Of a stretch of 64,000 nt of DNA, positions 11,141-60,017 are shown one piece after another (position 1 is the stretch's first letter; every line of letters starts with the position of its first letter). A program made the translations under genes and the position numbers. This DNA comes from Blasia pusilla (taxonomy: Eukaryota). The stretch covers positions 6,758,001-6,822,000 of the forward strand of contig CM114271.1 in NCBI GenBank assembly GCA_050084515.1. Direction: 5' to 3'. The notes under the pieces are model-generated. The model did not search any database. It saw only the letters and a list, made by a program, of their open reading frames with translations, and was not told the origin of the DNA.

Positions 11141-11219
11141 GCCTGTAGAAACTATTGCTAAGCTCGGATCAACTGTACCTTCAATGTTTGGAAGATGACA
11201 TGGCGCACATTTACGCATG

Positions 11220-32570: not shown

Positions 32571-33777
32571 TCTTTACTTTTGTTGGATATGACCGTTTTA
32601 TTTTGGAATCTCTCATGGGAATTTTTAGTCAATAAGATTATTTATTTTCTAAATGAGTATGCGGCCCGGTTTTGGGTTTTTTAAGAGAGTTGAGACAAGA
32701 CTAATACTAATAAGGTGGGAAGAAACAAGGGCAAAGACTAACACTATGGGATGGATGCAATTTAGAGCGCTTCCGGTTCCTACGGAAACACTACAAGAAA
32801 AAAATAACCCGAAAAAGAAAAATACAACAAGTCGAGATGAAGAATGATAGCTCCTCTCCAGTGTCGTGCGCATATACATCGCTATATAACATACATCGTT
32901 GTCACCAAACACACACACAAACACGCACGATCCCATGCTAACAACGAGACAAGAAGTACCAAAATATCTCCAATCAATAAATAAGATCAAATCTCTCATG
33001 AGATTATAGTTCTGACATGTGTGCACTCCCAAACCCACTCTCCTAATGAGAGGCTTGGGTTACACACACAAGGCAAGCAAGACCATAGCTCCGCCGCCTC
33101 ATGCTAAGAGGTTCAACAAAGAGAGAATGAGCTCTCAAGCTCTCTCTCCTTGAGGTATTCCCCTCCCCTCTCCCAAGCTCTCTCCATGGTAACCTCTGCT
33201 CCCAAGTCACCTCCTTGGCTCTTGACATGATGTAGGAGGTCAAGGGCTACTTACCAAAAATAGAAATCGATCATATACTCGAAATAATACTTGCCTAAAA
33301 TAGTAAATTCCTTAATATGGCTCCAAATGAGGCGAAACGAAGGGGAAACCTGCTCTCTCAGGTTTCCCGGGGCCTCACCATGTCATCCTTGACCTCCTGA
33401 GCCTGTCCTTCACTACTCACAAAGGCGCTCTACTAGATCCCATCGATCTATCCTAAAAGACGTGACATTTGTTGTGCGCATACACATCGCTACACAACAT
33501 ACATCGATGTCACCGAACACACACACAAACACGCACGATCCCATGCTAACTCATGGCATCCAAAAAACGAGACAAGAAGTACCAAAATATCTCCAATCGC
33601 TTCCCTAGCTGGTGGTTAGATCGCGCTCACTCCAAATAGCCATCTATCCCTACCTACCATGACATACATCTCTCGGACGCTAAGAGCAAGAAGGTCGGGT
33701 GCTCATGTGGCCCCATCGTTAGTCGCCTTCTTGTCATCCATGTCACAGACACAAGTCGGAATGTAGAACTACCTACT

Positions 33778-36700
33778 CTATGTACATCTGTGACATATCC
33801 ATCGTCCCCTCGGAACCCTAGTGAGAGGTGGTGTCAAACATGTCATATGCCATCCTCTCAAACACCCATCACAAACTAGCATAGTGGCTCCACCACGGGC
33901 GGAACCACACAACATACACTGCAAGCCTGTAGAAACTATTGCTAAGCTCGGATCAACTATACCGTCAATGTTTGAAAGATGACATGGCGCACAGTTACGC
34001 ACATGGTCCTTCCAAACCATATCATCGTGTTCCTCCAATAAGAGAACACCGGATGGCAAAACCTCAAGCACTCTCAAGACGGTGCGCTCTGTAGTCACAT
34101 CCAACATCGGTGGATGCCATCTACTGCAAGTAGACATAGTCTCCCTAATGAAACCTCCGGATAGTAGGTCGATAACCACCTCCCCCAATAGGCGTATACC
34201 TCAACGTATCCCAAAGTTGCGCAATCGCCAAGTTCTCAAACGCCATGGGCATCACTCTCAGAAACAACTCAGCCGTGTGAGAACATGTTCGCATCCATAC
34301 ATCAGGGTCATCAAGGTTCAACACCTTACCAAAATCTCGACGAATGGCCGTAGGTAAATCTAGCTCTCGTCCTTAAAGCAACAAGTACGGTGAGAAAGAC
34401 GCTAAGTATGCCTGCTTGCTGAATCTTTATCCCATCGCCAACCACGGCAACTCAAGGTCTCAATCTCCTAGGTGACCTCTCTACAAGCCATACTTGCGTA
34501 GTCCTCTCTTCACCATCTGCATAACTCGCTCCGCTAGTCCATCCGCCTAAGGATGATCTCGCAAAGTAGTGCGGTGGTCGATCTGTGCCTGATCACACAA
34601 GGCTTGAAACTCCCTGCGGAACTCTGTACCATGGTCTGTCAACACCTCAGTTGGTGTGCAGTAATCACTCAACATTCGATTTTGGAAGGCATACGCTACT
34701 CCCTCACTTGCTTTGTCAGGAAATGCAACCAACTCTATCCACTTCAAGAAGTGCTCGACCATCACCAAAACATAACGACTATGGCGCTCCGTCAAAGGCA
34801 AAGGTCCTGCAAAATCCAAACTCCATCTATAACCTAAACCCATGATCGAAAGTGGATGCAACTGTGGAGTCAGAGCATTGAACAATGCTCAAACTCGATC
34901 ACACGCCATGCATCTGGCAACAAACTGCTAAACGTCAGTCTGCATGCCTCTCCACCAATACTAAATCTGGAGCAAGCTATATGTCCGCTTCAATCCAAAA
35001 TAACCCAACTCCTCGTGTGCATGATGCACCAAACATGCTCTTTGCAAAGGATGAGGCACTACACGCACTCTCACATCCATCCTCCCTACTCACAACACAT
35101 GTGTGCCCTCCCATCGAAACCGTTTGGCTCGCTGTAGGATCCGATCCCGCTCTCTAGCACCCATTGTGCTTGCGACGTTTCCAGTACGCAGGTACTCCAA
35201 GACCACTCCATGGTCGTGAATGTCTTGGCCACTTGTTGTCTCCTCTCCGTCCTTCGGATCTAAGGACTCTCCATCAGACCTCACCATCAAAGTCTCAACA
35301 ATCTGGCTCTCCATAGCCAACAAGCCCAAATAGGCTGACGCATGCCATCCTAGCACCAACTCCTCATCACTCTCACCATGCAAACAAGCTCCAATCGCAT
35401 CTAGCTGACTCGGGCATGGGTTACGGCTCAAACCATCTACATCCTGATTGAGCATCTAAGGTCTATGCACCACCTAGAAGTCATACTCCTGCAACAAACG
35501 GTCCCACCTTGCAAGCTTTCCCGTAAGCTTGTCGGACTCCATCAACCACTTAAGTGGCTCATGATCAATAATGATGGTAAAAGAATTTCCGAATAGATAA
35601 CATCTAAAATGTGCGACAGCCCAGACTGCAGCCAAGCACTCACCCTCATACAAGCTATACTTTTCCTCTGCAACGTTGTTCGAGCGACTAGCATAAGCCA
35701 CCACAAACTCTCTACCATCATCGTCATGCTGGGTGAGCACGGCTCCAAGCCCCAACATGCTCCAATCGGTATGCAACTGGAAAGGACGCCCCCTGATTGG
35801 TCTCCTCAATATGGGCGCGGACGTCAATCTGTCCTTGAGCATATGAAATTCTCTCTCTTGCTCATCCTCCTAGTGCCATTCCTAATCCATCTTGGTTATC
35901 AAGGTTAGCAGCTTCGCAATCAAACTAAAACCCTTGACTTATCGTCGATAGAAGTTCGCCAATCCCATGAATGCATGAACTCGACTCACATCTGTAAGGC
36001 GTGAAATAGCCTCTACCTTTGTTTGTTGCACACCAAGATCCCCAGGATATATCGTATGATCCAAGTACTCAATTTGGTTGTAGAAGAACTTGCACTTGCT
36101 TGGATGTAGCTTCAGCCAATGTAACTACAGTCGTTGAAACACCTCCTCTAGATGTCGCTCATGCTCCTCAACCGTGGCGCTAAAGACTACGATATCATCA
36201 ATATAACACCTAGCAAAATCCTGACTTGCCAAGATTCTATCCATGACCCTCTGAAACTCAGTCGGGGCATTCTTTAATCCGAATGGTAAGAACCGCCATT
36301 GGTTCAAACAATCCTTCCCGTAAGGATTGATGCCCCAAAATGCCGTTTTCTACCTGTCCTCCAATCTAATAGGCAACTGATGGTATCCGACTCGCAAATC
36401 CAATGAATTGAAGACCTTTGCATGCCAATCGCATCAAAGATCTCCTCAGGGATGGGCATGGCATACCTATCGGACTTCGTCTACCGATTGATAGGTCGGT
36501 AATCTCCACACATTCGCTTATCCGTCCAATTGCCATGCACATCCTCCTTGACGGGCATGACAATGGCAGATGCATACTCTCCATGCAACATCTCCACTAG
36601 TCTTGCTCCAACCAAGACATAGCTCCTACTCTAAGTCAAAGCCCTCTCCATGTCACTATACTTGTGGGGTCCTTGGAAGATCGGCGTGTCAGTCGATAAC

Positions 36701-36900
36701 TCAATGCGGATCCCTGGACCCTTCAGCGTACCCAAATCATGCATACTAAATGCAAAACAACTCCTATAACTCCTAAGGAACAAGTGTATCCGGCACCGCT
36801 CTCCTCTTGTCACCTTAGGGCCCATATTTGGCTCCCAAGTCTCCATCGTGACTACGGTAGGACACTCTGGCGAGGGTGTCGGTGGTTGCTACGGTGTAAC
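33778..36900 (-). pseudogene. RT-RNaseH-integrase-PHD, disrupted, copy 2
   Basis: FLPFGLKNAPTEFQRVMDRIL..CYIDD; FQLHTDWSMLGLGAVLTQ..YASRS..EGECLAAVWAV; WSLDFAGPLP..LTDHGTEF; PHD CMLC..CDGC..HMTC..CHRC. Confidence 0.92.
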
Positions 36901-37159
36901 CCCGTCTCGGACAATAGAACTCTAATCTCCACTTGCAATACCCGGAACCACACTCAATGTTGTGGTTATCATCCTCTAGCGTACTAGCAAAACATCCCAA
37001 GAAGTCCAAGGGTGTCTCTCCCGATCATCCCTGGAGTGTCGATCTCCTCTGGTCTAGCCCCCAGCCGCTACCTCAATCGCCTCGGTAGGCATGGGGCTCA
37101 CCAATGCAACAGTTGTGATATGTTGTGTCCTCAAATGACGCTGCTCAGCTATTCATAAG

Positions 37160-38030
37160 TTGAAAATCCATGTCAAGCAGTTCAAGTCCATTGCCTGACC
37201 CAAGACATGACGTCGTGATGCCTCTTATAGTGATGGTACTGCCGTCACTCTTATGGGAAATCCCATCGCTCGCTCTTGCTCATTGGCATTGGGCTCCACC
37301 AACCTATGTACTTGGTCATCCCAAACCAAGCCAGGTCCGGCCTCCTTGAATGCATAGGAAGCAGGAAAACTCACCAATGTGGGAAAGGCTGCCCGTGGCC
37401 TGCCATTCCTGTTGACCACAGTCAACGGCAGTTGATCATCTAGCCTCATTGCCTGTGATCGAAGGCCTGGATCCAATATGGAATCCTCCAACAAATCGGA
37501 GGGGCGCTCCACTCTTGCATATGCCCTCTGTAACACCTCATGTGGTACCAAGTTTAGAAACGTGGAAAACTCACCACGCGGGACCTCGAATCGCCCAAAA
37601 TTGGCACATTCCTCTAAATGTATGTTGGAGAACAAGACTGATGCTCTTGTAAATATCGCAAGATCCACATCATCTCCCAAAATAACCTAGACCCAGTGTC
37701 AGCTAATCTGCTACCTCATCCAGCACTCGATTGGCCCTAACACAACCAACCAAAAATGACCAAGTCTATGGTCCCTACTCGCTCCAAGTCCTGCGCCCCC
37801 AACAATGAAATGTCCCTCGGTAGGGAACTCTTGTAACCCTGAATGGCGGACGTAGACAACAAGTTGAGAAAACGGAGGCGTAATAGCGCCATATGGTGAA
37901 GTGAAGCGCCCTTCGCAAGATCATCAATCTCCACATACAAGTACTGTTGCACGCACACTCCAGAGTGCAAAACAACAGCTAACCAAGTGCTAATCCCTCC
38001 AAAGAGATCCAACGCCAGAATACCCTTCTC
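37160..38030 (-). pseudogene. DNMT3-like C5 cytosine methyltransferase domain, disrupted, copy 2
   Basis: ALDLFGGIST..YLYVEIDD..DISLLGAQDLERVGTIDLVIFGWLC (ORF 37737-38192); EQERAMGFP (ORF 37225-37680). Motif VIII region partly deleted. Confidence 0.85.
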
Positions 38031-38399
38031 TAGGATGCACCACACAATCAAGGTGGTGTCCAAAGGGTTCATAGCATCTCTCTTGGCTACATGGGGTTTG
38101 TTTGACCCGTCACACTCTGGTGCAAACGTCTCGCTCCACACGGTTTGCACATGCTCAGTGGCTAAGCGTCGAAGCTCCTCAGACGAGCCCAATGCGGCAC
38201 CTCTCCTCCACGGATTGATACGGCTACCATGACACTCCTCTCCATAGAAATGTCAGGAACAGGAGTATCCTCTGCATGGACATGTCCCTCAATCAAATCA
38301 CCAGGCCAAGTAATGGCATTGCTAAATGCTGCTAAGGTTGCCATCTCTCTTGGACGTCGCTCGATCATTGCACTTGTGAATCGAACGGGTAATGAGCTA

Positions 38400-40760
38400 A
38401 GGCGCCCATCACCTGACTGTCATCCTGGTCTGTAGGATGTTGACTCCTCCCAATAATCAAGGGAAAAGCCCATTGGGTATAACACAGCTCCACCAACCAA
38501 GACGTCGTATGACTCTCCATCAATCACTATCGCCTTGGCTCGCACCACAGACTCATCTGTAGGATGTCCCGGGCGAATCCTCACCATGACCTCTTGTTGG
38601 GTGATATACTGTGTGGTACTCGCTCCACCCAAGGCTGTCTGTATTCGGAATGGAAAATGCTCCACGTCGTCTCTTTTCAAGCCCAATCCTCTTAATTATG
38701 CTTTCCCCAACATCAGGTGTTGCGCTCCTGAATCCAACAAGATGCGCTGCGGACTAAAAGCTCTACCTCCAGGACTCACCAACTGGAAGACCTCTCCCCG
38801 GTTATCCAGCAACACAACACCATGAGAAACCATGGCATGCTTTATCGCAGGTCTAGCGGGCATCTCCGCCATCCTAGCAGCCGAAGCCTGCCATGAATCT
38901 GACGTGGATGGCCCAAGCATCCGCTCCAAGGGCATGTCTATCACCTCCTCTGCAATCACTTCTAAATGTGATGCAGGAACTCCAACTCCACGATCACATA
39001 GCGTAGTGGCCAGCCGAAAACCTCGGCGGGCGTACCTCCCAATGTCATAACATCGGAAGTAGAAAATAAAGGAGCGCGATACACAACGATGGCCACCCCC
39101 AACAACGTGCTCGACACATGCCCCTCATAAGCATCAAAAATATATATCGTTGTATGCGCTTCTCCCATCGCCCTCCGTGCGTGCACACCAACAATATCAC
39201 CAACTCTTGAGGAACTTTGATCACGACCCATCGATGGGGTCCTCATTGCCTCGGACAACGTGAAAGACTCAGGAAGCCTAGTCTGTTTCCTGGCTTCCCC
39301 TCGCTGTGGATCCAACTCTGCGGTTGCTCCATGCGTCACAACTGCGGTGGCTTCCATCTGGACAACCTCGCACATCCAACCAGGATCCTCCATATCTCTC
39401 GCTGCTTCATATGATGTTGATGCCACGGATCCAGCATCAGGTAACCTCAATGCCATAGCGGCAATCTGCTCATGTAGCTGCTATATCTTAGCAGCCATCC
39501 CAGCCTCACGCCCGACATCTCCCTCGACGCATCTAGATGGTGGGACTCTACCTCCTCCATGGGCAGCTCCACCACCCTATCGAGAAACTCCAGCTCCTCG
39601 CTCCCCAACGGGACCACCTTGTGCACGATCTCTAGGCCCACCGGGACCGGCTACTCACTCTGGTGCCCTCTCTAGTCCTCGCTTCAGACGTCACTCAGGA
39701 TGTAAACTGAAACATCTGACGCATGTATGACCATACCTTTGACAATAGTCATACTGATAACCTCTTGGTGCAGCACCATCTCCTCTCCCATGCTGAGGCA
39801 CACGTCCATGACCCTAACAAGTGCAATCGCGTTGATGATGGGCTCCACCACATGACCAACAAGTAATCGTAGGCGGCTGCTGCTGAGTCGCATATGAAGG
39901 CACAAGTCTCTATGACACGGCCTTGCGGTATCCTCCCTGAGATCGTGGTGCCACAGTCGACCTATCTCGGAGTTCACGTTGCTGCATTGGTGGTGGAGAC
40001 AATCGTGACTGCTCTCGCCCAGAACCCATGGTGGCTACGCTCTCCTCTGCCATGTTGCACTCAATATTATCGGTGGTCCTAAAAACATCTATCAACGTAG
40101 GGGAGGTGTTCATAAGGAGCACCCCCTCCCGCATCCGTGTCCGTAGGGTCCGGTCCAGCATCGCGTACCATGATTGGATAGCCTGAGCCTCTGTCACCCC
40201 CTGAGTGACGTTGATCAACCGGTACAAGCGAGTATAAGCCTCATGCAAACTCTCACCCGGGCACCTTTGAAAGTCGTGGATGCTCCGCAACTTCTCTGTC
40301 CGTACCCCTTGGTAGCTCGCCCTCAACTCAGCGAAGAACTCAACCACGGGGTTGAACCTGGGACGAACCCGACTAGACGGTGCAACTGTTCCAATGCGAG
40401 TGACCCCTCCTAAAACATGAGTAGTGGAAGAGGAAGTAGCCTCTCCTGACTCCTCCTCCTCATATGGGAATGGCTCTATCCATGACACATAGTCTGGGTC
40501 ATCGTAGAGTCGCCATGCCTCAATCTCCTAGGCATATCTGTGGGAGAACTCATGGTAATCGTCCATGGGAGCCCCCTCTAAATGCTGGAACATACCGTTC
40601 CATGTTGTAAACGGATTAAACTCTCTAGAGTTCCTGGCCTGTTGTGAGTCACACCAACTCCTTAACTCCGCAATGAAGTCGTGTAGCTCTATGGTGCCTA
40701 CAGCACCCGAAAACCTACGTGGTCCTCTACCCTGGTCGTCCATCTCGTACACCCAATTGG
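38400..40760 (-). pseudogene. Gag and aspartic protease, disrupted, copy 2 (5' part continues at 53862-54070)
   Basis: RILLDSGAQHLMLG, YDVLVGG; gag ORFs 39910-40488 and 40528-40752 are homologous to copy 1. Confidence 0.8.
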
Positions 40761-41169
40761 GAGGTGCAATAAGAGGAGAGGAAGAGAGGAAGAGAGGAAA
40801 CTACCTTCAACCGAAAGAGACACTTTTTTTTAAAGAGAGTTTCCTGTGATTTGAAGAGAGTTTCTCTTGGGTTGAAGAGAGGAAACTTTTTGTGTGAATT
40901 TTTTTGCACTTTTCTACTCAGTTCTTAAGCACTCCCACAGTTTTCTTTTTCTCATTCACTTTTTGGCAACCCATTTGAGTCCGACGAGTTGCAAATTACA
41001 CAAAATTTAGAAAATTGAAAATCAGTGGAATCATAAGTTTGGAACCAATAACTTTTTCCATCCAAGGTCTGGAAAAAATCTATCATTTGCTCTAAGCTAA
41101 ATAGAGTTCAAGCTCAAAGTGAAGGTTGTGGAAAAATGAAAGTACAATCTAAAACCTCATTTTTCATCC

Positions 41170-44100
41170 TCAAAGTGGTTTGTTTAAAATACTTCGCACT
41201 TCTTTGAGGGACAAAATTGGTTGGTGGATTCCTACTCCTACCTCCGACTCTCTTAAAACTACAAGCAACACATAGTACATGTGCTTATAAGGGAAATACC
41301 TTTTCCCACTTGTCTCTCTTTGGACAAAGTCATCACATGAACATGTGGGAAAGCAACAGATGTGCACCACATACATCCCTATGACACTTGAATTTACAGT
41401 GTTGTTCCCAACCTAATATATCCTTCCTATTCCATTGCCAATCTGGACATCTTTCGTGGCGATGATCTCCATTTTTTCCTCCCGAGTTGATGCAATTCGC
41501 TTTGCTCTCTCCACCGTTGGCCTATACATTTTATTTCTCTTCACCCCATTTCTAGACTCAAAGAGAAATACTGGATTGAAATCATCCACCTTCTCCGAGT
41601 ACATGTTGACATCAATCTTGGGTTGAATACAAAATGCGAAGGTCTCTGTAATGTGAACATGCTCTAAACTTCCTCAGTCTACGAGTATGAAACTGGCACT
41701 TGTAAGATTGTCCACTTTGTCTTGAGTGCAATTCGTACCTATGGCAATGGGCCAAATCGTGGGGGTATTCCCTGGAGCTCTAATGGCAGCCGGATAAGAC
41801 TTTCAAAAAGCCCAAGATTCATTTGGGCAGAAGAAGTACTTCAATTGATTCCCAGTCCTCGTGAAATGATCAAAGGTTTTGAGTCCCCAAAATCCAGCAG
41901 TGGTCGTCCAGTCCTTGTACAGTTCTTATTTAGGAAAGTGCCGCATGCTCTCCTAATGCCATAAGATCCTGCCCTGCAAGTGGATCCACGTCCAGGGTTG
42001 CTCCGAGATATATGCCACCGTTTGAGGTTGCAATCCATCGCAATGACCGGAATCCCATATTGTTGAACCACCCCAGCGATCGGATGTTGCGAACTTCCAG
42101 CAACTAAGGGCTTTTGAAAAAAAACATTCACGGATTTTGGAGAAGTTACTCCATCACGGATTTGGGAGCAATCCGGGGTCTCCAAATACATGGGCGGCGT
42201 GATTTCCTCGTCCAAATCAATCACCGGGTTCCTCGATGTTGCCTCTTTACCTGCGTGAAGTCAAGATACTTATCTGGTCTCCACGAGTCTCGCTCGGACT
42301 GGTCTACCACCATATGTATGGGACGTCTTGAAACGCGCCCACAAATATCCCCACCAATGTGTACGTCTTGCTCCAGGGAAGTTTCAACTACGCACCAATT
42401 GAAGGCTTTCACATAGAGTTTCTCATCACCCGATCTCACAGCCGCCTTGACATAGAGCTCGTAGATCAAAGGCCCCCCTTCCTTTTGTTATGCCTTTTGT
42501 GAGGAAGATATGGGATGATGCAGACTATAGCATTGCTCTTGCCTGGTCTTGTTGGCATGCTTCCATAAGTGAAATTCTTTGGCATGCTTGTGACGACCTC
42601 CAAGAGGAATGAACACTTTCTGCTCCACTTGTGTTGGGGCAAAGGGTATTTTCATGAATGTTCAATCCCTGCAACAACGGCAATATGAGAAGGGAACCAA
42701 AATAGCTCCAAAGTTAGAGAAAAAAGCTACATGTTGGAACTACACGGGTTGCAAGTCAAAGGTATCCCATGAATGACTCTGTGACCCGTCAGGTTCCGAT
42801 GTGTTGCAACACTCACGAACCACCTACTGCAACCCATCCGATTCCGAAGGGTTGCAAGAAACTTTGGCCACTCCAAGTTGGAAGATCCAAGTGCAAGTCA
42901 TCCCAAACCCATCCGGGTCAAATTATTTGCAGGCCTTGTATACATGCAACTTGCATACTTTTATTTGGGTTACACCAACATTCTTGATGCAACCCGTCGG
43001 TTTCCGACTGGTTGCACACTTAGGCAACCTGTCCGTTTCCGACGGGTTGCACACTCGGGCAACCTTCCCCATCCGACAAGTTGCTTGGTTTCTTCGGCTT
43101 GAAATCCCTATAGTGCCCGCGCTTCTCAACTTGAGCTGCAACTTTTCAAACAATTCTCAGCGTGAGCTTGACAAGACAAAATAGTTAACTCACTTGCCGC
43201 ATGAAGTTTCCCCATTATCTCATTCGTACAGTCCACCAACTCATCCAAGAGCACAACTCTTTGTACTTCCCCTCAATTGCATGCTTCCTCCACCACCCAT
43301 GAAGTTCTTCTTGGCATTCCATGGCATGTTTCAAGGTTTTGTAGTCCTCGCAGCGTTGGAGTAGAGTGACATGCTCTGTCCTCTTATTCTCCTTGATGCA
43401 AGATTTGTTGTACCAAGTCACAGACTCTTGCTAATGGAAAGCATCCAACCTTTCCCTCTCCGGTTGAACCTCTCCACCCTAGAACACTTCCCTGATAGCA
43501 ATCCACCCAGGTTGTGCATTGTCCCCCACGAACCCATAAATTTCCGGAGGTGGCCTTTTCTTTTCCTTCACCACCTCCAATAAGAGTAACCAACATATCT
43601 TCAAACTGCCAACGTCTTCTGCTTTTACTTCACAGACAAATATAGTTTTGAGTCCCTTCTCCACATGGTCATAAACATGAGCACCCATGGTCAACCATCC
43701 ATTCAGCACTCTGTAGCAAATATCAAAGCTTACCCAGCTTCTGTGAAGATCTTCCCCTTCATTCATTCGATCTATAATATCGAGGTCACTCGACGGTCCT
43801 GTCGTTGATATTTTTGAAGATATAAGCCCTGGATCCTTCGCCTCCTTGGCCCATGAACTGCCATCTCTAAGTGAATGGAAATGTGGAGTTGGCCTTGATT
43901 CTGGAAATGACATCCATTTCGGCCATCTTTCCATCCAGTACCTGTATTTGACGTAGCAAATTTCGAAAACATTCAGGATCGGCGAGAAATGCGAGATTTT
44001 TCGTGAGTTGTTTCTCCTCAATAGTCGTGATCTCACCCTGCCCAAGAATTCCAAGCAGTTGTTCACAAATTTGTGATGTTGTTGTTAACTTGATCACTCC

Positions 44101-45778: not shown

Positions 45779-46215
45779 TGTTACCCGAGGGAGAGAAAAG
45801 TGTGCAACCTGTCGGTATCCGACGGGTTGCTCGGGTTCCTCTCCTTGTAATCCCAAGATGAGGGAAGCGTGTTACCCGTCAACCTCCGACGGGTTGCACG
45901 GGTACCTTGCCTTGTAACAAAAGCATGAAGGAAGCGTGCAACCTGTCGACCTCCGACGGGTTGCGCGGGTACCTCGCCTTGTTATCCCAAGATGAGGGAA
46001 GCGTGCAACCCCCTGGTCTCCAACGGGTTGCGCGAGTACCTCGCGTTGTTACCCCAAGACGGGGGAGGTGTGCAACCTGTCGGTCTCCGACGGGTTGCCA
46101 TGGTAGGATGGATGGATGCAATCCATGGGTCTCGGACAAGTTTCATGGGAAACTCGCTCTGCATCCCCAAGATGCGGGAAGCGTGCAACCCGTCAGAGAC
46201 CGTCGGGTTGGCCGG
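45779..46215. repeat. Tandem array of ~67-bp units, each containing the 27-bp palindrome
   Basis: Units ttgt(t/a)a.cccaagatgagggaagcgtgcaacc.gtc....tccgacgggttgc.cgggtacct.gcc starting near 45779, 45846, 45912, 45979, 46046, with a degenerate unit near 46160. Confidence 0.85.
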
Positions 46216-46534
46216 GTTCCCACGTCCAAAGTTCCATAATGGCCGATACGTCGCCGTCGGTATGACGGTGCGACCCAACGGTCAGCTCAACGGCTCGAAA
46301 AGTGTAAATAGCCAAGGTTTTGCTCACTTTCATTTTTTTTTTCGCGATTGCATGTGCTCTTCCGTGCAGCAGCTCAACAGATACCAAGGGGAGTGAGGAG
46401 GGTGAGGGCGCTTCATCATGAAACGCAAAGAGAGTTGGGTCTAGGATCACGGCGATTCATCGCGAGACCATTCAAGGGAATTTTCGTGCACAGAAAGAGA
46501 CTAGACTGTCGAGGGGGAAGCATTGACGGGAACC

Positions 46535-49500
46535 ATGACGAGGAAAAAAACACAAGCAAGCAAGGTAGGGAGCATCACTCCCAAGTCCATGAGGACTCAT
46601 GTGTCACCATCTCCAAGGCCTCGTTCGGCCAATGAGATAAGGCACCAAGAGATAGAGGAGCGGGAAAGGGAAGCAGATATGCACATGCAGGAGCTTCTTG
46701 CAAAACGTGTTCTGGAGGCGCTCGAAAAACAAAACGCCAAGGCTGAGGCATCGCACGCCTTGAAGACAAGAGTCGTCGATGAGAAACACGAGAAAAAACA
46801 TATGGACGCGTCCGTGAGGAGAGCAGAATGGAAAAAGCAATTGCCATTGAAGAAAGCCCTGCCCATCCAACAGAGAGTGTTGAGATGCACGAAATGTCCC
46901 CGATGAAGTTTGGGGACACCATGAATATAAAATCGGTTGAGGAAACGGCCAAAGTTCAAGTGACGGATGATGAGGCCATAAGGACGGCAAGCGTGGGGAT
47001 GGTGGACATCTCTAAAGAAGCAGGACAACAATCTTCCTCGTCTTTGAGCCCGGCCAAAGAAATCGACCTTTATCGGATCGATGAGTTTCCTGTGGACTTG
47101 CCAACTGCTGTCCCAGAGCAGTTTGCGGGCCAAGACACCGACCCAATCTTTGAGCGGGTAAGAAACGTTTGAGTTATGTGAAGGCCCATGATGCAATTCA
47201 TTGGCAAAAAAGTGTAGTTTATTGACTTGGTCCCCATTGTGGCAGGTTGTTAAGCAGATGGCACTGATGGAGGGCCAAAACATGCCGAGAATTCCACTTT
47301 GCCGATCGCGGACAATGGAGTACATCCGCAAAATTCACTGGGAGGAGGATATTACAAAGGTGAAACAATCGGCAGCGACAACATCCAACGTTGACAACTT
47401 CCCTCTGTTCTATGTTCAACCTTACAATGAACATGGAACCCAAGCGCTGGTGACGAAAGAGGACTTGGAAGCGCTCGATATATTCTGGAGGATGAGAGAT
47501 CAGGAGTTTAGAAGAGCTATTGAGGGGACGCAATTTAGCTAGATGCGGAACCCTTACTTCTTCATCTGGGATGGAAACCACATGTACATGGCATGGACCA
47601 AGTTTGCACAGGAGCGCCCAAATTCATTGGAGGCCCATTTTTGCGTTAAGACAATCGTGCTCCATCCATTTCCTCATCACATGGCAATGGTGGAAATGGA
47701 AATGCATGCCATGAATACGTAAGTTTCCTCTCCCTTAATTTTTATTGGTTCAACCCTTCGGTGTTAGACAGGTTGCATAATTGGAAAGCTTCAATCAAAC
47801 CGTCAGAGTCTGAGGGGTTGTCTGGTGGCCAAGCACACCGGAGAAAGTCGGGATACCGAAACCAGTCCACCATCGACGTGTGTAAAAATGAGTGCATGAT
47901 TTCTATGTTCTGAAAACTTTCGAACTTCGATGAGTTGTTAAACTAGTGGTAACAAATCATCCGACGCCTAAAAGAAACTCGTCAAAGTCCGACCAGTTGC
48001 TGGACTGTCCGCTATTTTGGGATGTTTTTGGCCGAAAGCAACTCGTCAGACTCCGACGGGTTGCATTTTCCCCCACAGGTAGATGGTCAGAGTAGGAGAG
48101 CTTGCTTTTAGGCGTCCAATTTCAGCTTTACAAGGAATTGCGCAACTTGTCGGACTCCGACGGGTTGATACGTGCAGTTTTTTCCGAAAACCAGTCTGCG
48201 AATGGAAATCATTTTACAACCCGTCAGAGTCCGACGGGTTGTAGCCAAGGACTAAAACGGATGGACCTGAAAATCACAAATCCCAGTGCAATCCGTCAAA
48301 CTCCGATGGGTTGCAATTATGTCTCAAAATTTGCGTGTGTGTTGCAATAAGTATAACAGAAAAAAGGTGTTGCGACTCGTCGGACTCCGACGGGTTGCAA
48401 TATTTTTCTCTGTGCTACCATTTCAACCACCAGGGGTTGCAACCAGTCGGTGTCCAACGGGTTGCAGGAATCCGGTAGCTTGCAATAATTCTTAACGTGT
48501 TTTTGGATGTGCAGGATTGTATCCAAGGGGAACGTCACCCACCACTGGATCCAGGATTACGACACGGTGAAAAAGGTGCTTACGACGCACCCAGAAGAGT
48601 ACATGGGGTTCTTGGGCGACTCTCTGGTAAATGGGATGTTGGCGAAGGGGGCTCAAATTAGAAAGAAGACTTGGGAAAATACCTTCATTTCCCAAGCCGC
48701 AACGCGTCCTAGAATGACCATTCACGCAGCCAATGGGAGATCACTGGGTCAGAAACTCCTGGAGGATGGTGTGCTGCCCGCTTTTGGGCCTCTGTGCTCT
48801 CGACACTGATTTTCATGAGTTGGATTCTCCTAAACTCGGAAATTCCTGACAGTGCAAATCTGTGAACGCGGTCCAGAGACACTTTCTCGCCGACCCGACC
48901 CTGTGGATCTTCGTCTCTCTTCCGCTGGCGCTTGATTATCACCTTGATTATCCTTTGTTGGTCGATCTTGGTAAATGAAGGCTTGGGAAAATACCTTCAT
49001 TTCCCAAGATCGCCTTGATTATCCTTTGTTGGTCGAAGATCCAAGCCGCCAAGAAGAGCGCTTCATTGGAACTGGAGCTAAGGGAGAACATGTTTACGTC
49101 TGAACGTGCAAAGTTTATCCAGGCCTTGAGCTCCTTGTAGAATTCCGGGTCAAGTTTGGGGTTCAAAATGGCAATGTATCGCTGCATCTTGCTTGCAGTG
49201 TACTTCGTAGCTGTAGATACTGCAGCATGGATAAACTTTGCACGTTCAGACGCAGACACGTTCTCCCTTCGCTCGAGTTCCAATGAAGCGCTCTTCTTGG
49301 CGGCTTGGATCTTAGACCAACAAAGGATAATCAAGGCGATCTTGGGAAATGAAGGTTTTCCCCAAGCCTTCATTTCCCAAGATCGACCAACAAAGGATAA
49401 TCAAGGCGATAATCAAGCGCCAGCGGAAGAGAGACGAAGATCCACAGGGTTGGGTCGGCGAGAAAGTATCTCTGGACCGCGTTCACAGATTTGCACTGTC

Positions 49501-52362
49501 AGGAATTTTCGAGTTTAGGAGAATCCAACTGATGAAAATCAATGTCGAGGGCACAGAGGCCCAAAAGTGGGCGGCACACCATCCTCCAAGAGTTTCTGAT
49601 CCTGTGATCTCCCATTGGCTACGTCGTGAATGGTAATTCTAGGATGCGTTGCGGCTTCTCGAGAAGTCCATGCTCGTGGATCTTCAAGCGGAGCTTAAGA
49701 AGATTGAGCCAGTTTTGGAGGAAGCAAACCTAGAGACTGCGGAAGATTTTGAGCTATGGCTTGATGACATCCGAGACAAGCCCACAAAAAATCCAAGCTT
49801 CAGGATGATGTTCAAGAATCACATCCTCCCTCAGGTAGACCTAGATGAAGAAATTGACCCCAAAAAAAGGGATTTCGCAAAGAAGAAGCGGGGTCTTCAG
49901 GAGCAGGTGGCCGATTCATCTCGACAAAGAGCTGCCCAACGGATGGTGTACAGGTACCTCATCAATTGTAAGAATGCAGGTACCTCGCAAAAATACCGAC
50001 ATCTTGCAAATTGTGGGCTTCTCCGCCTGATGGAGAGGCATTTTCCATGTACGACATAGAGATGGCACATGGCATGTCCGACTGGGAGGTTGAAAATTGC
50101 CCAATCTGGTTGGACTTCAACGACCCTGAGGACATAACCGAAAAAAATCTACGCCTGGTCTATGATGCAGTGGTCACAGGTAGGGACGACATTCTGAATT
50201 TCGTGCTGCGTGAAGATTTTTTCGAAGGAGATGCGGAGGAGCAAGCCCTCAAGACAGCGGAGCTGGTGTCCAAGGTCATCACCGCCAAGGACAAATCTAT
50301 AGTGTGTTTGAAAGCAAAGGCGAGGGGATTGAAGAATTCGGAGGCCGACTCTTCCAGAAAAGAGGCTGACACCTCAAGGCGAGAGGCGGAATCGTCCAGG
50401 CGAGCGGGGCAAGAGGGCCGGACCAGGTCCTCCGCCAAGAAAACTCCAATGGAGTCTGAGGTAATAGAGACCCCCACAAGCCGACCGCAGACTCGGGAGA
50501 AGCGAAAGCGGGAGGCACCTGGTTCATCCCAAGGAGCAGATAAGGATGTGGAATACACTCCATCATCCTTGGGAAGGCATAGACAAACAACGACCATGAC
50601 AAATGTCCTCATTCAGTTCACTCATCTTGTGGATGAGCTGCAAAGTTTCAGTTCCCAGGAGTCCACACCCGCCATCGACAAATTGACCATGTTGGGACGA
50701 AAACTTCAACAAAACGGGCATGCTCCCTAGACGGTCCATGGGGTGGTCGAGGAGGTGGCGGTGGATCTCCTCATCGCAAATTTTCCCTCTAGGTTTCGCT
50801 TGTGGGACAATAATCCGTCTGATACTGTCCCACACTAGAATGTCCCTCTTTCCTACGAACAGATCGCGCTCTTGTTTTCTTTTGCAGACGCTTATATGAG
50901 TGATAGGGGTTGTTTCTTGGTCTTGATTGGAGGGAGCAAGGATGAGCTCTTCAACCTTCTGTGCGTAAGGAGGTCGCTGAAGTGGAGGACGGCGCAATCA
51001 TGGGTCATTAAGAACAAGTATCCACTCCGATCGGCGATGAGTCAAGTCCGGGTAAGTGCTCTTAATCCAAATTCAACCCATCAGGCTCCGACACGTTGCA
51101 TCTCTCCATGCAACCCGTCAGATCCCAACAGCTTGTGGCTGGGGTGTTGCAATCTGTCTGAAAGCAACGGGTTGCAAATTTACCACAAGTCTCCATTGAG
51201 TGAGTGCAACATGTCAGAATCTGATGGGTTGCTCTTAGCCAACCATGGGTTGCTCTAAGCCAACAACCTGTCTGTTGGCTTTCGACGGGTTCCTCGTGGC
51301 AAAAAAAAAACACTTACACTTGTAAAACAACCCGTCGGACTCCAACTGGTTGCTCTACTGTTAGAACTATAGGCCAAGTTCTTATGGGTTGGTAATCAAC
51401 AGGGACTAGAATGCACTATGGACGTGTTGCACATTGTGTCTCCATATTGAGAGTAGACCAGCCGTCAAGTAGCTCTTTCTTTTTGCTAACATTATTTCCA
51501 ACCTGCTTCTTTACAGATGGACCACTTCTTTGTCTATTGTTTTGTTAGGCCCGAGCACAACTTCCACGTGTTCCAGATCCCGGATCCAGTCGATCCATGC
51601 TCCGATGGATACAACTTAGATAGTTTATACAATTCCCCCCTGGGAATTTACATGCAAGACGGAGCCCTTACTTGGAGGAAGGGAAAAGTCCCCTGCCTTG
51701 ATGCAAATGCTCATCGAGCTCTGTTCAAGGCCGAGTGACTTGGTCTTCGAATTAGTGGGCCTATCAGGGGCGAGTATCAGAGGTGTTTGCAGAGTGGGAG
51801 GAACATTCTCTGCCTTGAGAGAAGGAAGGAACTTTATGACCTTTGCAAAGAGGCAAGGCAGATTACGACAGACTAGTGGGAACATAAAACTCTCCTCCAA
51901 AGCCGAGAGCTCCGGTTCTAACCCACCATTGATAGTGACACCATCGTCACTTCCCACTTTTCTGAAAATCGGGAGGGCAAGGCCGATAGTAATTCTAGAA
52001 GAGCTCTCGGATGATGACAAGTGAGTTCAAAGAACTAAAGGACCCAGCTTGCCTGAAACGTTTTGGAGTAGGGATCTATTGGTTTCCAAGGATGGAGCAC
52101 ATATTGATACAGGATGGGTATCACCTTGTGGAGCGTACAAGATTTACTGCCGAGGAAGGCGGTGGGACTCAAATCAGGTTACATGGGACCGTTATGGTGT
52201 ACCTGGGGGGGGCAAGGCTCTCGAAATTCCCCAACATTTTTGATCCCCATCTACAATCGGCCAAAGGAGCCACTTGTATCCCAAGACATTCCTTTTGTGC
52301 AGGAACCTAGGAGAGTTAGGAGTAAATTTGTAGATGACGAGGCTGAAAAAATCATAGACTAG
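46535..52362 (+). pseudogene. Transposon accessory gene: ParB/Srx-like domain fused to N6-A/N4-C DNA methyltransferase-like domain, disrupted
   Basis: RIPLCR..FYVQ..FFIWDGNHMYMAW (47285-47600); VDLLIANFP..LFSFADAYMSDRGCFLVL (50761-50925); REKSPALMQMLIELCSRPSDLVFE..SGASIR/CLQSGRNILCLE (51680-51820, one frameshift). Predicted introns 47719-48514 and 51052-51516 (GTAAGT..CAG). Confidence 0.65.
48694..49657. repeat. Long inverted repeat (arms 48694-49121 and 49228-49657, ~106-bp spacer)
   Basis: The arms are reverse complements with scattered substitutions; mirror ORFs 48709-48942(-) and 49349-49636(+) share IIKRQRKRDEDPQG..HWLR. Confidence 0.92.
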
Positions 52363-55300
52363 ATCAAATGTACATTTCCGAGCTTCCCTCGGATGTAATA
52401 AAGGAAAAAAAATTTTGAACCATGATGGTGTTTGTAAAAGTTTGCTGAATATTTTTTTTGGTTTTGTCGATTGTGTTGGTCTATCTACTCAGACTGTTTA
52501 TTTTGCAACCTCTCTGATTTCGACAGGTTGCAACTTTTCACAATATTTTAAACCACTTTCAGGCAACCTGTCAGATTCCGAAAGGTCGGCGGCTTGAGTG
52601 ATCCGACTCTTTTCTTGTTAGTCCAACTTTTGAGGTATTCTTGCGGGCTTCTTCACTTTTGTCTTGTTCCCCTATTATCGTCAAACCATTCTTCTCTAAT
52701 TCTTCTCTTCTCTAGGACGTGTTGGATTCCTACTACCTATCGGATTGCCATTTGGGATTCCCAACCTGTTGGATTCTCATGGGGTGCAAGGCGAAATGGA
52801 ATCACTTCTCAAGATCCTTCTTTTGTTATTGTGTGCTTGCTTGCAAGGGATGCAACCCATCCGATTCCGACGGGTTGCAAAAGTTGCAACCTGTCGGATT
52901 TTGACGAGTTGGAAGGATTGTAGCTTCTCGGATTCTCAGATTTAGGATGTGAATGAAGGAACATGGGTGCGTCAGTTCCTCTTTACTCCTAATAGCTAAA
53001 TATCTTTTGCTTCAATTATCGTCTCGTTTGATCACATTTTCTTCTTGATCAGTTCCTCTTTACTCCTGATAGCTATCAATCTTTTGGTTCAATTGTCGTC
53101 TCGTGTGATCACATTTCTCAGTGCCAGAGAGAATGGTGAAACCAAGTTGTCAAACGCACAAAAGTCCATGGTATACTTTGTGCATCCATTCATGAGCCCA
53201 CATCATCAAATGATGTAATGAAAGTCTCCGGTTACCATGAGTGACGAGCGATTTATTCTGTTGTGGAAAACCCCCCTTATGGATGAGTATTGATGCCTTC
53301 TGCAAGAAGAGTCAACAATCATTTAAAGGCATTTCCTTTTGCCTTTCTTTTGCCCCTTATCGATGAGTATTTGATGCCTTTTGCAAGAAGAGTCAACAAT
53401 CCATAATGTCAACCACATATTCAGAGAAGTTACACCTTGAAGGGCACCAGAGTCAATTGAGACCATAGTTAGAGTCTTTATTTGAACCTTTCATTGAGAT
53501 GAAATTGCTACTTCTGGTCAAATTATTTGCCAATGGTCCTCCAACAATAATACCCTTGGGCACAACTTACTGTAGACTTGGACAAGAAATGTGAAGAAAA
53601 TTAGGCTCACATGGAGAGTGATGGAAGAATGTTGTAGTGGTCTTATGATGTCTACTTGTTTTTTTGCCCCTTGGAAAACGGAGGTTACTTTAGGCCCGAA
53701 TGTGGTCCACTTGCTACTCTCTTCTAAAGATTTCATGAATTTTAAAGCAATTTTTTTTTTCAAATATGTCAAAAAGTTTTGAAGAGAGTAGGCGGATACT
53801 CCCTCTTTTTTTTAAGAGAGGCTATCCTCTCTTCCTCTCTCCTGCCAGATTACCAGCCCTCGCCCAATTGGTAGGACCACTCAATATGTACGGTGGATCA
53901 CTAACACTTTCCTCTACACGCTCCCCCTTGTCTGAAAACAACACAAAAGGAGATCGAGGTGGTCTCTCAGGTGGAGACCCTCAAAACCTCGCACCACTCC
54001 GGATAAATCCTCTAGAGTTACTCTCGGGTCCACTACCTCGCCTCTCAAAATCGTGAAAGGACGCCGTAATGGCCCTCGTGCCCCTCTCACACGATCACTC
54101 TCAATCTCGTGAGTAATCCCTCAATCACTCAAACTAAACATGCGGCACTCAATCTACACTCTCTCACTAAGATATGTGATGTGCGGCAACAAGCAGCGTA
54201 GTGCGGAAAATCAACCGATATATCGTCTCATCGACAAACCATCCTCAACTCTGGACATCCCACACACGTCTATGCCCCCTAGACCCATACATCATCGATG
54301 CTCCTAGCATCATCATGAAACCCAATATCCCAAATAACTTCTCGATATCTGGAAATCCCTCACCCGTGAAGGGTAAGAGACCATAATGGGTAACCTAAAA
54401 ATAATGTCGATGTCGCTCCTTGATAACTGCAAATCTCGACCCTGACTCGGTCGTGAAGACAACTCCTCCAATCATCAAGTCGTACTCCTCTTGTACTGAC
54501 GCTGCTCAAACCTCCTCGATGTGCGGTGCAGGTCCAGCGGTCCGGTGCGGCACTGGCGGCTACAAATGGCACGACACTATGGAATGGGTTGCAGCACTCG
54601 GCGACATACCCTCCTCAATCAGAAATTCACATGCTCTGCTTCTTAGTAAAGGAGGGGCTCCGCGATCGAGATGGTGCAGTGCGGCCACGAGTGGCATGGC
54701 GCAACAAGTGGCGGTGCGTTGCCGCTAAGCGCATCACGGCACGGTAATCGATTTTCGTCGAGCGGCTACCAATCACAACATAACAACATGAAATGAAAAC
54801 TCAAACACCATAACCTGCGGTCACCTGCCATCACTGGTTGATGAAAAAATTGCGATGATAGTGGCGGCCAAACCAACGCACTTGGTTGCGGCGCAAGTCT
54901 AAGAATCAACGGTGGTCGTGGAGGACCCTCCACTCCGTAATGGCGGAAATGGCAACCAAAGGGTGGACAACGGGCGAATGCGACTCTGAGCAGCGCTAGG
55001 CGGCGGCGGCGGCCGACGGTGGATGGTGTACCATTGACAGTTGACCGTTGATGGTAACAACCGACTGTTGATGGTGACGATGATAGTTTACCGTCAACGG
55101 TGGACCGGTGATAGTGACTATGACGGCGGTGGCGAGTTTAGGGTTTGAACAATTTAACCCTAAAAATTGCCTAGCAATGGTAGTTTTGCAAGATTGACCA
55201 TAACGTTTTGCTCACAATTCTACATTGTGCACCGTTTGTTGCACGCGTGCACAGCTTCACGATCTAGGATAGCGTCAAAAAATATTTGGAATCAAAAATT

Positions 55301-56777
55301 TGAGTAAAAATTGACAGGGACTGTCATGAAGCCCAATGTCTCTTTCTCGTACACAAAATTTGGCAGCGCTTCCGCGCTGATTTCTCCCAATGAAAATGTA
55401 AAACATGTGAGAACACAAATCAGAAAGCTATATGGTGCTCCAGAGAGCATTGGAATGGGGCAACCCGCCCCCATACTCAATCCCTATAAAAAATTGGGCA
55501 GCGCTTCCACGCGTCACTCTTCCACACAAAAAATCGGCAAAAGAAACATCACAAGTAAGCGGCTCTTGCTCTGGTGAGCACTCCCATGAACCTCTGAACG
55601 GGGAATACGATCCCCAGCCTGCAAAAACAGCAAGTGACGAGCGAGCTCCCCATGAAGCTCTCTCACTCACTCATTATCTCTTTGTAAAATAAGATCAAAT
55701 CTCTCTCACAAGACTATAGTTCTCACATGTGTGCACTCTCACATGTGTATCTCAATGTCAAACCAAACCCACTCTCCTAATGAGATGCTTCGGTTACACA
55801 CACAAGGCAAGCAAGACCATAGCTCTGTCGCCTCATGCTAAGAGGTTCAACAAAGAGAGAATGAGCTCTCAAGCTCTCTCTCCTTGAGGTATATCTCTCC
55901 CCTCTCCCAAGCTCTCTCCATGGTAACCTATGCTCCCAAGTCACCTCCTTGGCTCTTGACCTAATGTAGGAGGTCAAAGGCCACTTACCAAAAAATAGAA
56001 AGTTGATCATATACTCAAAATGTTATTAACTTAAAATAGTAAGTTCCTCAATATGGCTCCAAATGAGCCAAAACGAAGGGGAAATCTACTCTCTCAAGTT
56101 TTCGGGGGCCTCAGCACGTCATCCTCGACCTAAAAGCATGTCCTCCACTACTCACAAAGGCGCTCTACTAGATCTCATCGATCTATCCTAAAAGATGTGA
56201 CACTTGGTTTCCAGCAAACCTTCAGTGCATGTGTTACTAAAAAATCGGGGTTATTTAGCATCTCCGTCGATTCTACCCGCATTTGGTTTGTGTCTGGCTA
56301 TAATCATTTTAATATTTCGTGCTTTTTTGTTTGGAGGCCTTGTCCTTGTTGGGCTATCCTGACTTGCACTATGATTATGCTTATTGTGCTTACAACGGTC
56401 TTTCCGTAGCTTCTTTGGAGCATGTATGGCGCTTAGGCTGCACAAAGAGTCAAACACCCAAGACTTTGAGAACATGATGTAATGACAAGAAGTAGGCGTG
56501 GGAGAAAGTAGATCAACATGTCTCGACCGATGTGGAAAGAGCATTAATACTAACACGCGGGAGTAATTAGTTCTCAAAGGACAAAAATTATTTTAATCCA
56601 TCATATGGTCTAGAAATTCACATCGGAGGGTTCAGAATTTTGCAGAATAATTTGTATTCTAGAGCCTTTCCACTCGAGGCTTAACTATTGTGGGGGCCAT
56701 AATTAATTGGATAGTTCAAAATTGATTAAAAATGGCCCTTGAAAATTTTGAGAGTTTAAAATGGAAAGTAATTTAAA

Positions 56778-56919: not shown

Positions 56920-57088
56920 TGTGGCTCTTATCCCCATGAGCACTCCCATGAGCCATGAAGTAAGGAACATGCTCCCCAACCTGCAACAAAGAGTGAGCAC
57001 CATCAAGCTCCTCCATTATAGCTCTCAAATACTCATTCTCTCTTTGGAAATCACGTGGATCTCTCCATTAACAAGGTCTCACAAATGT

Positions 57089-57149
<61 letters not shown>

Positions 57150-59904: not shown

Positions 59905-60017
<113 letters not shown>

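Follow-up and report, generated by a model that had tools for sequence, protein, structure and literature searches.

Split direct repeats and a DDE integrase in a gypsy-type retroelement of Blasia pusilla: repeat layout, relatives and a possible route of integration

Textbook long terminal repeat (LTR) retrotransposons carry two identical LTRs, and split direct repeats of the order A...B-A-B are treated as a mark of tyrosine-recombinase elements and of circular intermediates. A stretch of 64,000 nucleotides from Blasia pusilla (GenBank assembly GCA_050084515.1, contig CM114271.1, positions 6,758,001 to 6,822,000 of the forward strand; hereafter the window) raised the question of how a retroelement with gypsy-type coding sequence and a DDE integrase can carry such split repeats. 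The window contained two copies of the element, here called copy 1 (9441-19932) and copy 2 (32862-56202), and a third 5' end. The answer that we favour, with a probability of roughly one half, is that the ends of the complementary DNA (cDNA) are joined and that the integrase then opens an internal junction B-nn-A, nn being a spacer of two nucleotides.

Repeat layout in the window, in relatives and in genomic reads

Repeats in the window were mapped by self-BLAST, a repeat finder, a MAFFT alignment of six ends and motif coordinates. Copy 2 read on the minus strand, in order, A1, leader x, gag/pol, B1, nn, A2 and B2, and the self-BLAST, the six-end alignment and the motif coordinates all confirmed this layout, on which an earlier note on this DNA had been built. 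Repeat A1 (55685-56202) started with TGTCACA and contained a primer-site complement at about A positions 337-351. Leader x (55607-55684) followed, and its first 15 nt (55684 to 55670; CAAAGAGATAATGAG in this copy) formed a putative primer-binding site (PBS) of the self-priming type. Next came the 5' internal part (53861-55606), a foreign insertion of 13,096 bp outside the element (40765-53860, no strand assigned), and the decayed coding part gag-PR-DNMT-RT-RH-INT-PHD (33597-40764, many stops). A conserved polypurine-like motif, CTAACCACCAGCTAGGGAAGCGA (33597-33619), abutted the start of B1 (33470-33596; starting with TTGGAG and ending with CACAACA). The spacer AA (33468-33469) separated the final CA of B1 from the initial TG of A2 (32974-33467), and B2 (32862-32973), with an internal deletion relative to B1, closed the 3' end with CACGACA. 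Identity was 90.3% over 445 nt between A1 and A2, and 92.6% over 81 nt between B1 and B2 with its deletion (self-BLAST), which is far above chance level. The limits that the earlier note had given for copy 2 stood, but its interval includes the foreign insertion, and the inversion in copy 1 and a Dnmt3-like domain had been missed.

The same cluster B2-A2-nn-B1 was found in copy 1 (10039-10812), as had been reported. A third A plus leader end without B was likewise recovered on the minus strand (56964-57591), with A from 57591 to 57047 and the leader from 57046. This third end belonged to a more divergent subfamily (80.8% to A1), and its homology to the internal part faded by about 56923. Nesting of copy 2 inside this third element was considered and rejected: there was no target-site duplication (TSD) and the homology did not continue. 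The A-x junction was the same in all three window ends and the A-B junctions were near-identical in all three; the 5' ends read flank|A-x in 3/3, and the 3'-type ends A-B|flank or junction in 3/3. No TGG-type PBS followed A1 in the six-end alignment, in agreement with the earlier note; that the element lacks any PBS was not supported, a candidate self-priming PBS standing directly after A1.

Relatives were collected by a locus search with the DNMT alignment A2 (not the repeat of that name), which gave 76 metagenome loci. A sister family, that of locus L031, had the gene order of the window element and 38-83% amino-acid identity to the window pieces. The complete L031 copy read AAGG, A1 (1679-2017), x and internal part, B1 (10238-10350), GC, A2 (10353-10691), an extra A, B2 (10693-10805) and AAGG, a 4-bp TSD. 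Ends of this family were located by BLAST of the L031 parts against all loci and by inspection (L031 and L036 were the same site, as were L066 and L067). There were eight distinct 5' flanks; all ends started with TGTCATG, none (0/8) was preceded by B, and 7/8 ran from A into x. Five 3' ends were resolved (L031, L065, L046 together with the identical L057, L037 and L058), of which L065 showed B1-GC-A2 up to the contig end. L046/L057 was rearranged and ended with part of A, 16 nt and B, with the TSD CACA; this defective copy (L046 12578-13361, the same in L057) contained inverted pieces of A and of the internal part within the CACA duplication, and looks like an aberrant reverse-transcription product that integrated. 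Outside this family, L040/L043 read B1-GC-A2-B2|flank, and the GC-rich L023 read flank|A1 ... B1-GC-A2. Duplications of 4 bp were found in four copies: TATA in window copy 1, AAGG in L031, ATGT in L058 and CACA in L046/L057. The order A...B-nn-A-B, which the earlier note had supposed to be a family trait, is a family and clade trait and not a rearrangement: the window, the genomic reads, L031, L040/L043 and L023 agreed, and the 5' ends that would have carried B in rearranged derivatives of a conventional element lacked it in 3/3 and 8/8 cases.

Other loci contributed less. The search for a second B end beyond the junction was negative in L001, L003, L008, L025 and L079; in L008 and L025, B-GC-A ran straight into the next long open reading frame (ORF), so that both are silent on the layout either way. 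Sensitive self-comparison of 27 more distant loci gave few terminal repeats, such contigs breaking or closing at repeats. A scan of viral contigs gave two weak loci, and a scan of genome contigs gave one contig, L079, which closed on itself and was uninformative on ends. L079, of 9,285 bp, came from a metagenome-assembled genome labelled as cyanobacterial, and its first and last 127 nt were identical; it encodes a eukaryotic retroelement and looks like a mis-binned contig closed on a repeat. L008 (5883-12341) and L025 (2582-7207 and 7211-13669) had uninterrupted ORFs, of 2,153 and 1,542 codons in units longer than 12 kb, and these relatives may be active.

About 1% of a DNA raw-read run with the same species label was matched to window positions 9300-20100 at 80% likeness or more. 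The matching reads numbered 177,678, with a summed depth of roughly 1,000-3,500 over the element, and the element family is very abundant in the host of the window. Only 174 reads were at least 99% alike to the window copy, so nearly all matching reads derive from other copies. Differences between reads and window in this interval were mostly C>T and G>A, each at about 1,200 places while the other types occurred at 80-440, an excess that fits decay of methylated cytosines. Joints were counted among the matches listed: the canonical x to internal joint occurred in 296 reads (49 + 57 + 45 + 73 + 72), and the A to B joint in 153 reads, 110 without and 43 with an extra A. Past the B2 end at 10039, 1,609 reads ran into sequence of low consensus (agreement 0.37), as expected of a true insertion terminus. 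The weak consensus there read, in sense orientation, B-AC-TGTCACATCTGAG...; part of the family thus has B, then a spacer AC, then a divergent A, and may represent other subfamilies or tandem units. Two RNA runs with the same species label gave sense-strand coverage (first mate on the plus strand 150-250 at 10744-12187, against 27 or less on the opposite strand), and five RNA reads spanned the A|B junction.

Two registers of the repeats and the proposed route

The motifs that would direct reverse transcription bordered a different unit from the one that integrates. A polypurine-tract-like (PPT-like) motif, CTAACCACCAGCTAGGG(G/A)..CGA(G), stood directly before B1 in the two window copies as well as in L031, L034, L037, L058 and L065, and L023 and L079 had GCTAGGG at the PPT-like position. 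No purine-rich tract preceded A2; the conserved motif stood only before B1. On the other side, x in L031 and L064 began with 16 nt exactly complementary to A positions 164-179, a pairing of which not even 14 nt was reached in any of 20,000 shuffles of the L031-family A. In the window, the first 15 nt of x in copy 1 and in the third end were complementary to A positions 337-351 in A1 and A2 of copy 2, and the A of the third end kept this site with one change; among 20,000 shuffles the best match was 14 nt, seen once. In L012 the first 11 nt of x could pair with a site that precedes the end of the repeat by 214 nt. The three primer sites differed in sequence yet stayed complementary, at similar distances of 176, 184 and 214 nt from the end of A. 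A PBS of the self-priming type probably abuts A1, its site in A being the predicted 5' end of the RNA. Since the PPT-like motif abutted B1 and the candidate PBS abutted A1, the repeat placed at both cDNA ends by reverse transcription should be B-nn-A. That reverse transcription is ordinary and Tf1-like is, at the level of sequence, largely shown. The earlier note had suggested replication of the tyrosine-recombinase kind; where the PPT and PBS lie speaks instead for a B-nn-A repeat that is reverse-transcribed in the ordinary LTR manner and then integrated in an unusual one.

The integrated termini were the TG of A and the CA of B, as judged by flanks, TSDs and loose read ends; the earlier claim of TG..CA ends was borne out, with 4-bp duplications. 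These termini formed imperfect inverted repeats (TGTCAYG / CRYGACA), whereas the outer ends of B-nn-A did not, and the two integration ends stood back to back inside B-nn-A as a near-palindrome. On the coding strand, GACA-NN-TGTCA occurred in 14 of 77 loci (558,008 nt), against about 2.1 expected and a mean of 2.5 (maximum 7) in 30 shuffles. The spacer was GC in 13 of the 14, the site lay downstream of the pol match in 13 of the 14, and the matches came from about nine lineages, grouped by eye on flanking sequence. The variant of the window family was ACA-AG/AA-TGTCACG. The reverse-strand count of the motif was inflated by a conserved coding site, GACA-TT-TGTC. The CA-nn-TG junction, which the earlier note had likened to a built-in circle junction, was thus conserved across distant relatives, which is consistent with a built-in site of abutted ends. 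The A|B junction, in turn, was exactly what fusion of the predicted cDNA ends would give, the right one being the base just before the PBS and the left one the base just after the PPT, with 0-1 extra A in the window copies and L031 and a small insertion in copy 2; in L046/L057 it contained 9 nt of the PBS and filler.

Copy 1 appeared to record the activity of such a junction. Its true outer limits were 9441 and 19932, with the 4-bp target duplication TATA on both sides; the duplication that the earlier note had reported was present, but it flanked an inverted and not a simple copy. The outer 5' end, on the plus strand (9441-10038, with TATA directly before 9441), consisted of A (9441-9960) and leader x (9961-10038, ending in ATCG). 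An inverted block on the minus strand followed (10039-19302), with B2 (10039-10164), A2 (10165-10681), spacer AG (10682-10683), B1 (10684-10812), the PPT-like motif (10813-10835), and the decayed part from PHD to gag and the leader to 19302, where the plus strand ended in ..CGAT. The outer 3' end, on the plus strand again (19303-19932), consisted of A (19303-19805) and B (19806-19932), then TATA. With rc for reverse complement, the plus strand read A-x, then rcB2-rcA2-AG-rcB1-rc(internal), then A-B. The canonical leader/internal boundary was seen in copy 2 (..GGGG ATCG TATTCCCC..), and in genomic reads from other copies, which had the canonical x to internal joint with five letters fitting both sides. 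In copy 1 the four letters ATCG/CGAT stood at both inversion breakpoints in inverted orientation, and one breakpoint was joined exactly to the CA end of B and the other exactly to the TG end of A.

The simplest account of copy 1 would be a single transposase-type event within one molecule. The B-nn-A junction would have been cut in a precursor with one extra nn-A-B unit, and both cut ends would have joined the ATCG of the leader boundary at cuts staggered by 4 bp, so that the segment between them was inverted. The inversion thus seems best explained by an integrase cutting a B-nn-A-type junction. A nested insertion with a deletion, or with a homologous inversion, was considered and rejected because the breakpoints coincided exactly with the element termini and shared the same 4-bp target; these origins predict other junctions.

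The proposed route is that the repeats do two jobs out of register, one in reverse transcription and one in integration. Reverse transcription, ordinary and probably self-primed, would yield B-nn-A-x-internal-B-nn-A. The two natural ends of this cDNA, which fall at the start of B and at the end of A, would be joined as a circle, by repair or by template switching, and would give the A2|B2 junction. The DDE integrase would then cut after CA, on both strands, at the abutted-ends junction next to the leader, and the permuted DNA would be inserted as A-x-internal-B-nn-A-B. Only this form would keep a promoter-bearing A upstream and a complete B-nn-A downstream, and therefore only this form would make full genomic RNA. 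In copy 1 this chemistry would have operated inside a single molecule. Integrase is described as cutting palindromic LTR-LTR junctions, in the text available from these sources, for foamy virus (PMC1180852) and HIV-1 (PMC1905944), and also in PMC4372172. That the whole clade obligatorily integrates through an internal GACA-GC-TGTCA junction after joining of the cDNA ends is a wider proposal, and is put forward tentatively.

The proposed route weighed against its rivals

Several observations weighed against joining of the cDNA ends followed by internal cleavage. No intermediate was observed, be it a circle, a joined-end cDNA or a linear cDNA ending in B-nn-A. A circle with two repeats has two identical junctions, so random cutting predicts both permutations equally; the alternative permutation, A-B-nn-A-x-internal-B, was found at 0/11 resolved 5' ends, and the model needs an unexplained bias. 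The primer pairing was incomplete within copies: single decayed window copies retained 7-8 nt of the PBS complement, the 15-nt pairing in the window joined x of one copy with A of another, and the full 16-nt complement was present in only 2/7 L031-family copies. RNA reads started near 9815 and 19683, some 20 nt further downstream than the 5' end predicted for the RNA, although these starts rested on 10-14 molecules, too few to place transcription start. Two of the five resolved L031-family 3' ends (L037 and L058) read internal-B|flank without A2-B2, and L058, with the TSD ATGT, had 11 nt of A left at its 5' end. The layouts of L006, L008, L012/L018, L025 and L079, which were self-closing or read internal-B-GC-A-x-internal, fit split repeats, ordinary LTRs, tandems or circles alike. 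The precursor proposed for copy 1 requires an extra nn-A-B unit seen nowhere else, and copy 2 was flanked by CAAG and CTGG, with no matching target duplication.

In a first alternative, reverse transcription itself would make a linear cDNA with A on the left and B on the right, whose ordinary DNA ends the integrase would use, with neither circle nor internal cleavage; the cDNA would arise through extra priming or a template switch at the B-nn-A palindrome or through an end-to-end switch of the reverse transcriptase (RT) from A to B. Such a direct product accounts for the single permutation seen. The extra A at A|B in L031 and in 43 of the 153 junction reads would be a non-templated addition before a template switch; L046/L057 had inverted pieces of template-switch type and PBS letters at the junction; and the few RNA reads across A2|B2 indicate that some transcripts include B2. 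Against it, the conserved PPT-like motif stood before B1 and no purine-rich tract before A2, the PBS followed A and not B, and no stepwise scheme was found that gives the extra B without end joining. The copy 1 inversion, moreover, needs internal B-nn-A cleavage anyway. We consider direct synthesis of the A...B form unlikely, and keep to joining of the cDNA ends.

The 3' ends of L037 and L058 also bear on a second alternative, in which the short form A-x-internal-B is the primary product, cut from a linear B-nn-A...B-nn-A cDNA at its two internal sites, and the long A...B-nn-A-B, though less frequent and only a by-product of cDNA that was joined or concatemeric, is the sole propagating form. 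Both loci ended internal-B|flank, and in L058 (TSD ATGT, 5' end at TGTCAT 11 nt before the end of A) one event would be simpler than two deletions. The short forms may be B1/B2 recombinants or direct products of linear cDNA cut at both internal sites; recombination between B1 and B2 gives the same 3' end with the TSD kept. Both resolved 3' ends in the window (2/2) were long, the sample comprised five 3' ends, and a sterile main product is hard to square with the observed copy number. This alternative seems to us quite improbable.

Little is left of the view that a conventional element, with A+B as its LTR, gave rise to these copies by rearrangement or nesting, or that they are assembly artefacts. 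The A+B unit at 19303-19932 (TG..CA, about 645 bp) does resemble a solo LTR, and the window is a nest of old copies with about 10% mutual divergence. But B was missing at 3/3 window and 8/8 sister-family 5' ends, 296 raw reads had the x to internal joint, and the same order occurred with a TSD in independent contigs; a difference between 5' and 3' LTRs is, besides, not heritable under ordinary replication. The view is largely refuted and very hard to credit. Integration by a tyrosine recombinase, in trans or hidden in the element as in DIRS, Ngaro and PAT, is largely refuted as well and most improbable: A1...B1-A2-B2 is the PAT/Ngaro-type order, and the literature, in the texts available, links split direct repeats to tyrosine-recombinase elements, but no Phage_integrase was found in the scanned ORFs of the window and L031, four copies combined TG..CA ends with 4-bp target duplications, and the H2C2 plus rve integrase was conserved in relatives.

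Coding content, known systems and meaning for the clade

The coding part identified the window element as a decayed Ty3/gypsy-type retrotransposon with the apparent order gag-PR-Dnmt3-like-RT-RNaseH-DDE integrase-PHD. Pfam families on the minus strand occurred in the order Retrotrans_gag (weak; 16.5 bits, below the cut-off), RVT_1 (42 bits), RT_RNaseH/RT_RNaseH_2 (RT_RNaseH 72.6 bits), Integrase_H2C2 (37 bits), rve (43.6 bits) and PHD, and the protease was recognised only through homology to L031 and by eye. In copy 2 the landmarks were gag-like 39913-40527, PR-like 38423-38695, rve 34550-34888 and PHD 33781-34200, all on the minus strand. All window copies were decayed, with many stops. Pfam gave no tyrosine recombinase (Phage_integrase) and no other unexplained catalytic family in 38 window ORF pieces and two L031 ORFs, which agrees with the gypsy DDE integrase without visible tyrosine recombinase of the earlier note, and no families in the ORFs of the 5' internal part of copy 2 (53861-55606). 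Compared with Ty3/gypsy elements, the Pol order PR-RT-RNaseH-integrase with H2C2 and rve was present and two identical LTRs were absent, the 5' end having A only and the 3' end B-nn-A-B; a self-priming-type candidate PBS and a PPT-like motif stood next to the repeats for the B-nn-A unit but not for A+B taken as an LTR.

A Dnmt3-like cytosine methyltransferase domain was present between protease and RT in both copies, on the minus strand (37228-38252 and 13954-15062). The window's own roughly 430 codons between protease and RT had no significant Pfam or PDB match, and the assignment comes through homologues and not from the window pieces themselves. A phmmer search with the 171-residue piece 37740-38252 against 1.84 billion representatives gave 232 relatives at E ≤ 1e-3, 36 of them at E ≤ 1e-10, and one relative was a protein assigned by NCBI to a liverwort. 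Five of the six longer relatives scanned passed the Pfam cut-off for DNA_methylase (PF00145; 25-45 bits); three of the six were RT-RNaseH-(DNMT)-integrase-PHD polyproteins, and one was protease-DNMT, the window's own order. For relative P0089, the nearest solved structures were DNMT3A/3B (E 1.5e-8). Alignment A1 of the relatives showed the methyltransferase motifs I (FGGIxTGL), IV (GWPCQG) and VI (ENV); copy 2 had LDLFGGIS at motif I, a motif IV site decayed to FGWLC, and the C-terminal motif ERAMGFP. In relatives P0057 and P0132 the domain lay between RNaseH and integrase instead, so the module has moved within Pol. A PHD finger closed the C-terminus of the integrase on the minus strand of both window copies (33781-34200 and 10997-11227; 46 and 44 bits), and was kept in the long relatives P0057, P0132 and P0149. 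Chromoviruses have a chromodomain at the integrase C-terminal position that the PHD finger occupies here.

The 13,096-bp insertion in copy 2 (40765-53860) had GA-rich terminal inverted repeats of about 20 bp (AGGAGAGGAAGAGAGG / CCTCTCTTCCTCTCTCC) and was flanked by a target duplication (CCCAATTGG[G/T]AGG) that, at about 13-15 bp, is unusually long. Inside it were 67-bp tandem repeats (45775-46222) and an inverted repeat (48694-49124 / 49225-49657), and its ten ORFs gave no Pfam families. A short tandem or overlapping direct repeat outside the elements (59907-60154) had 77-80% identity.

The order A1-internal-B1-A2-B2, with an internal B|A junction that carries the information of both termini, is shared with the PAT-like and Ngaro elements of the DIRS order. 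The window element differs from them by its DDE integrase, TG..CA ends, 2-nt spacer, 4-bp TSDs, lack of a tyrosine recombinase and RT-RNaseH of gypsy-type Pfam families; DIRS-order elements are not known to duplicate the target site. The TSD of Tf1 is 5 bp. Bacterial insertion sequences of the IS3, IS30 and IS256 type transpose by copy-out-paste-in, in which abutted inverted ends a few bases apart are the reactive substrate, and their intramolecular events give inversions with target duplications; they are DNA transposons without reverse transcription and are unrelated in sequence. The Tf1/Sushi group, including the plant Tcn1 clade, comprises self-priming Ty3/gypsy elements (Neumann et al. 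2019, PMC6317226); as far as the text available of that source goes, they share with the window a non-tRNA PBS directly after the repeat and complementary to a site in the upstream repeat, but have ordinary identical LTRs and chromodomains, and the window TSD is 4 bp. The junction of retroviral 2-LTR circles is likewise, in the available text of the sources given above, an abutted CA..TG near-palindrome that a DDE integrase can cleave to integration-competent ends. Retroviral junction cleavage is a side route on a by-product, whereas the junction of the window clade is built into every copy and conserved.

The nearest precedent was KnitGypsy-Dnmt3 of Klebsormidium nitens, described as having a DIRS-type repeat structure with Gypsy domains (de Mendoza et al. 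2018, PMC5890265, legend of Fig. 4c). The combination that the earlier note had held to be undescribed is therefore stated there, in the part of that source available. Like the window element, KnitGypsy-Dnmt3 has a Gypsy-type Pol including a Dnmt3-like domain, and DIRS-like repeats (PMC5890265); host and family differ, and the window family is very high-copy. The available text of PMC5890265 has no occurrence of the PHD finger, which the window element carries, and gives no mechanism, PBS, PPT, junction or target duplication for KnitGypsy-Dnmt3. A preprint (10.64898/2026.05.21.726589) mentions "streptophytes (Gypsy-DNMT3)" in passing, in the portion available. In the partial texts retrieved, no work under the names KnitGypsy or Gypsy-DNMT3 took the repeat structure further, and those on split direct repeats together with retrotransposon included no gypsy element with split repeats among the matches listed. 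On shared architecture only, the window element belongs to the clade of KnitGypsy-Dnmt3. Gypsy domains with split repeats are already in print, with the mechanism unexplained, and the window holds a further family of that kind. New here are the shift of the integration ends relative to the repeat used in reverse transcription, the conservation of the junction of abutted ends, the PBS of self-priming type, the polypurine-like motif abutting B1, and the reading of the copy 1 inversion as a trace of integrase action.

The clade breaks the link between split repeats and tyrosine recombinases, because split repeats are combined in it with a DDE integrase and target duplications. LTR finders will mis-call such elements, for instance by taking A+B for a solo LTR or the copies for DIRS-like elements. 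The element carries two chromatin modules, the Dnmt3-like domain and the PHD finger. For the function of split repeats, a testable handle comes from where the PPT and PBS lie, from the conserved junction and from the copy 1 inversion. If the clade-wide proposal is true, this would be the retroelement equivalent of bacterial copy-out-paste-in transposition and a case of DDE-based elements converging on the split repeats of tyrosine-recombinase retroelements. It would concern a clade whose hosts range from GC-rich algal types to one with a large genome and thousands of copies, and copy 1 would be a fossil of an integrase cutting the B-nn-A junction inside a molecule.

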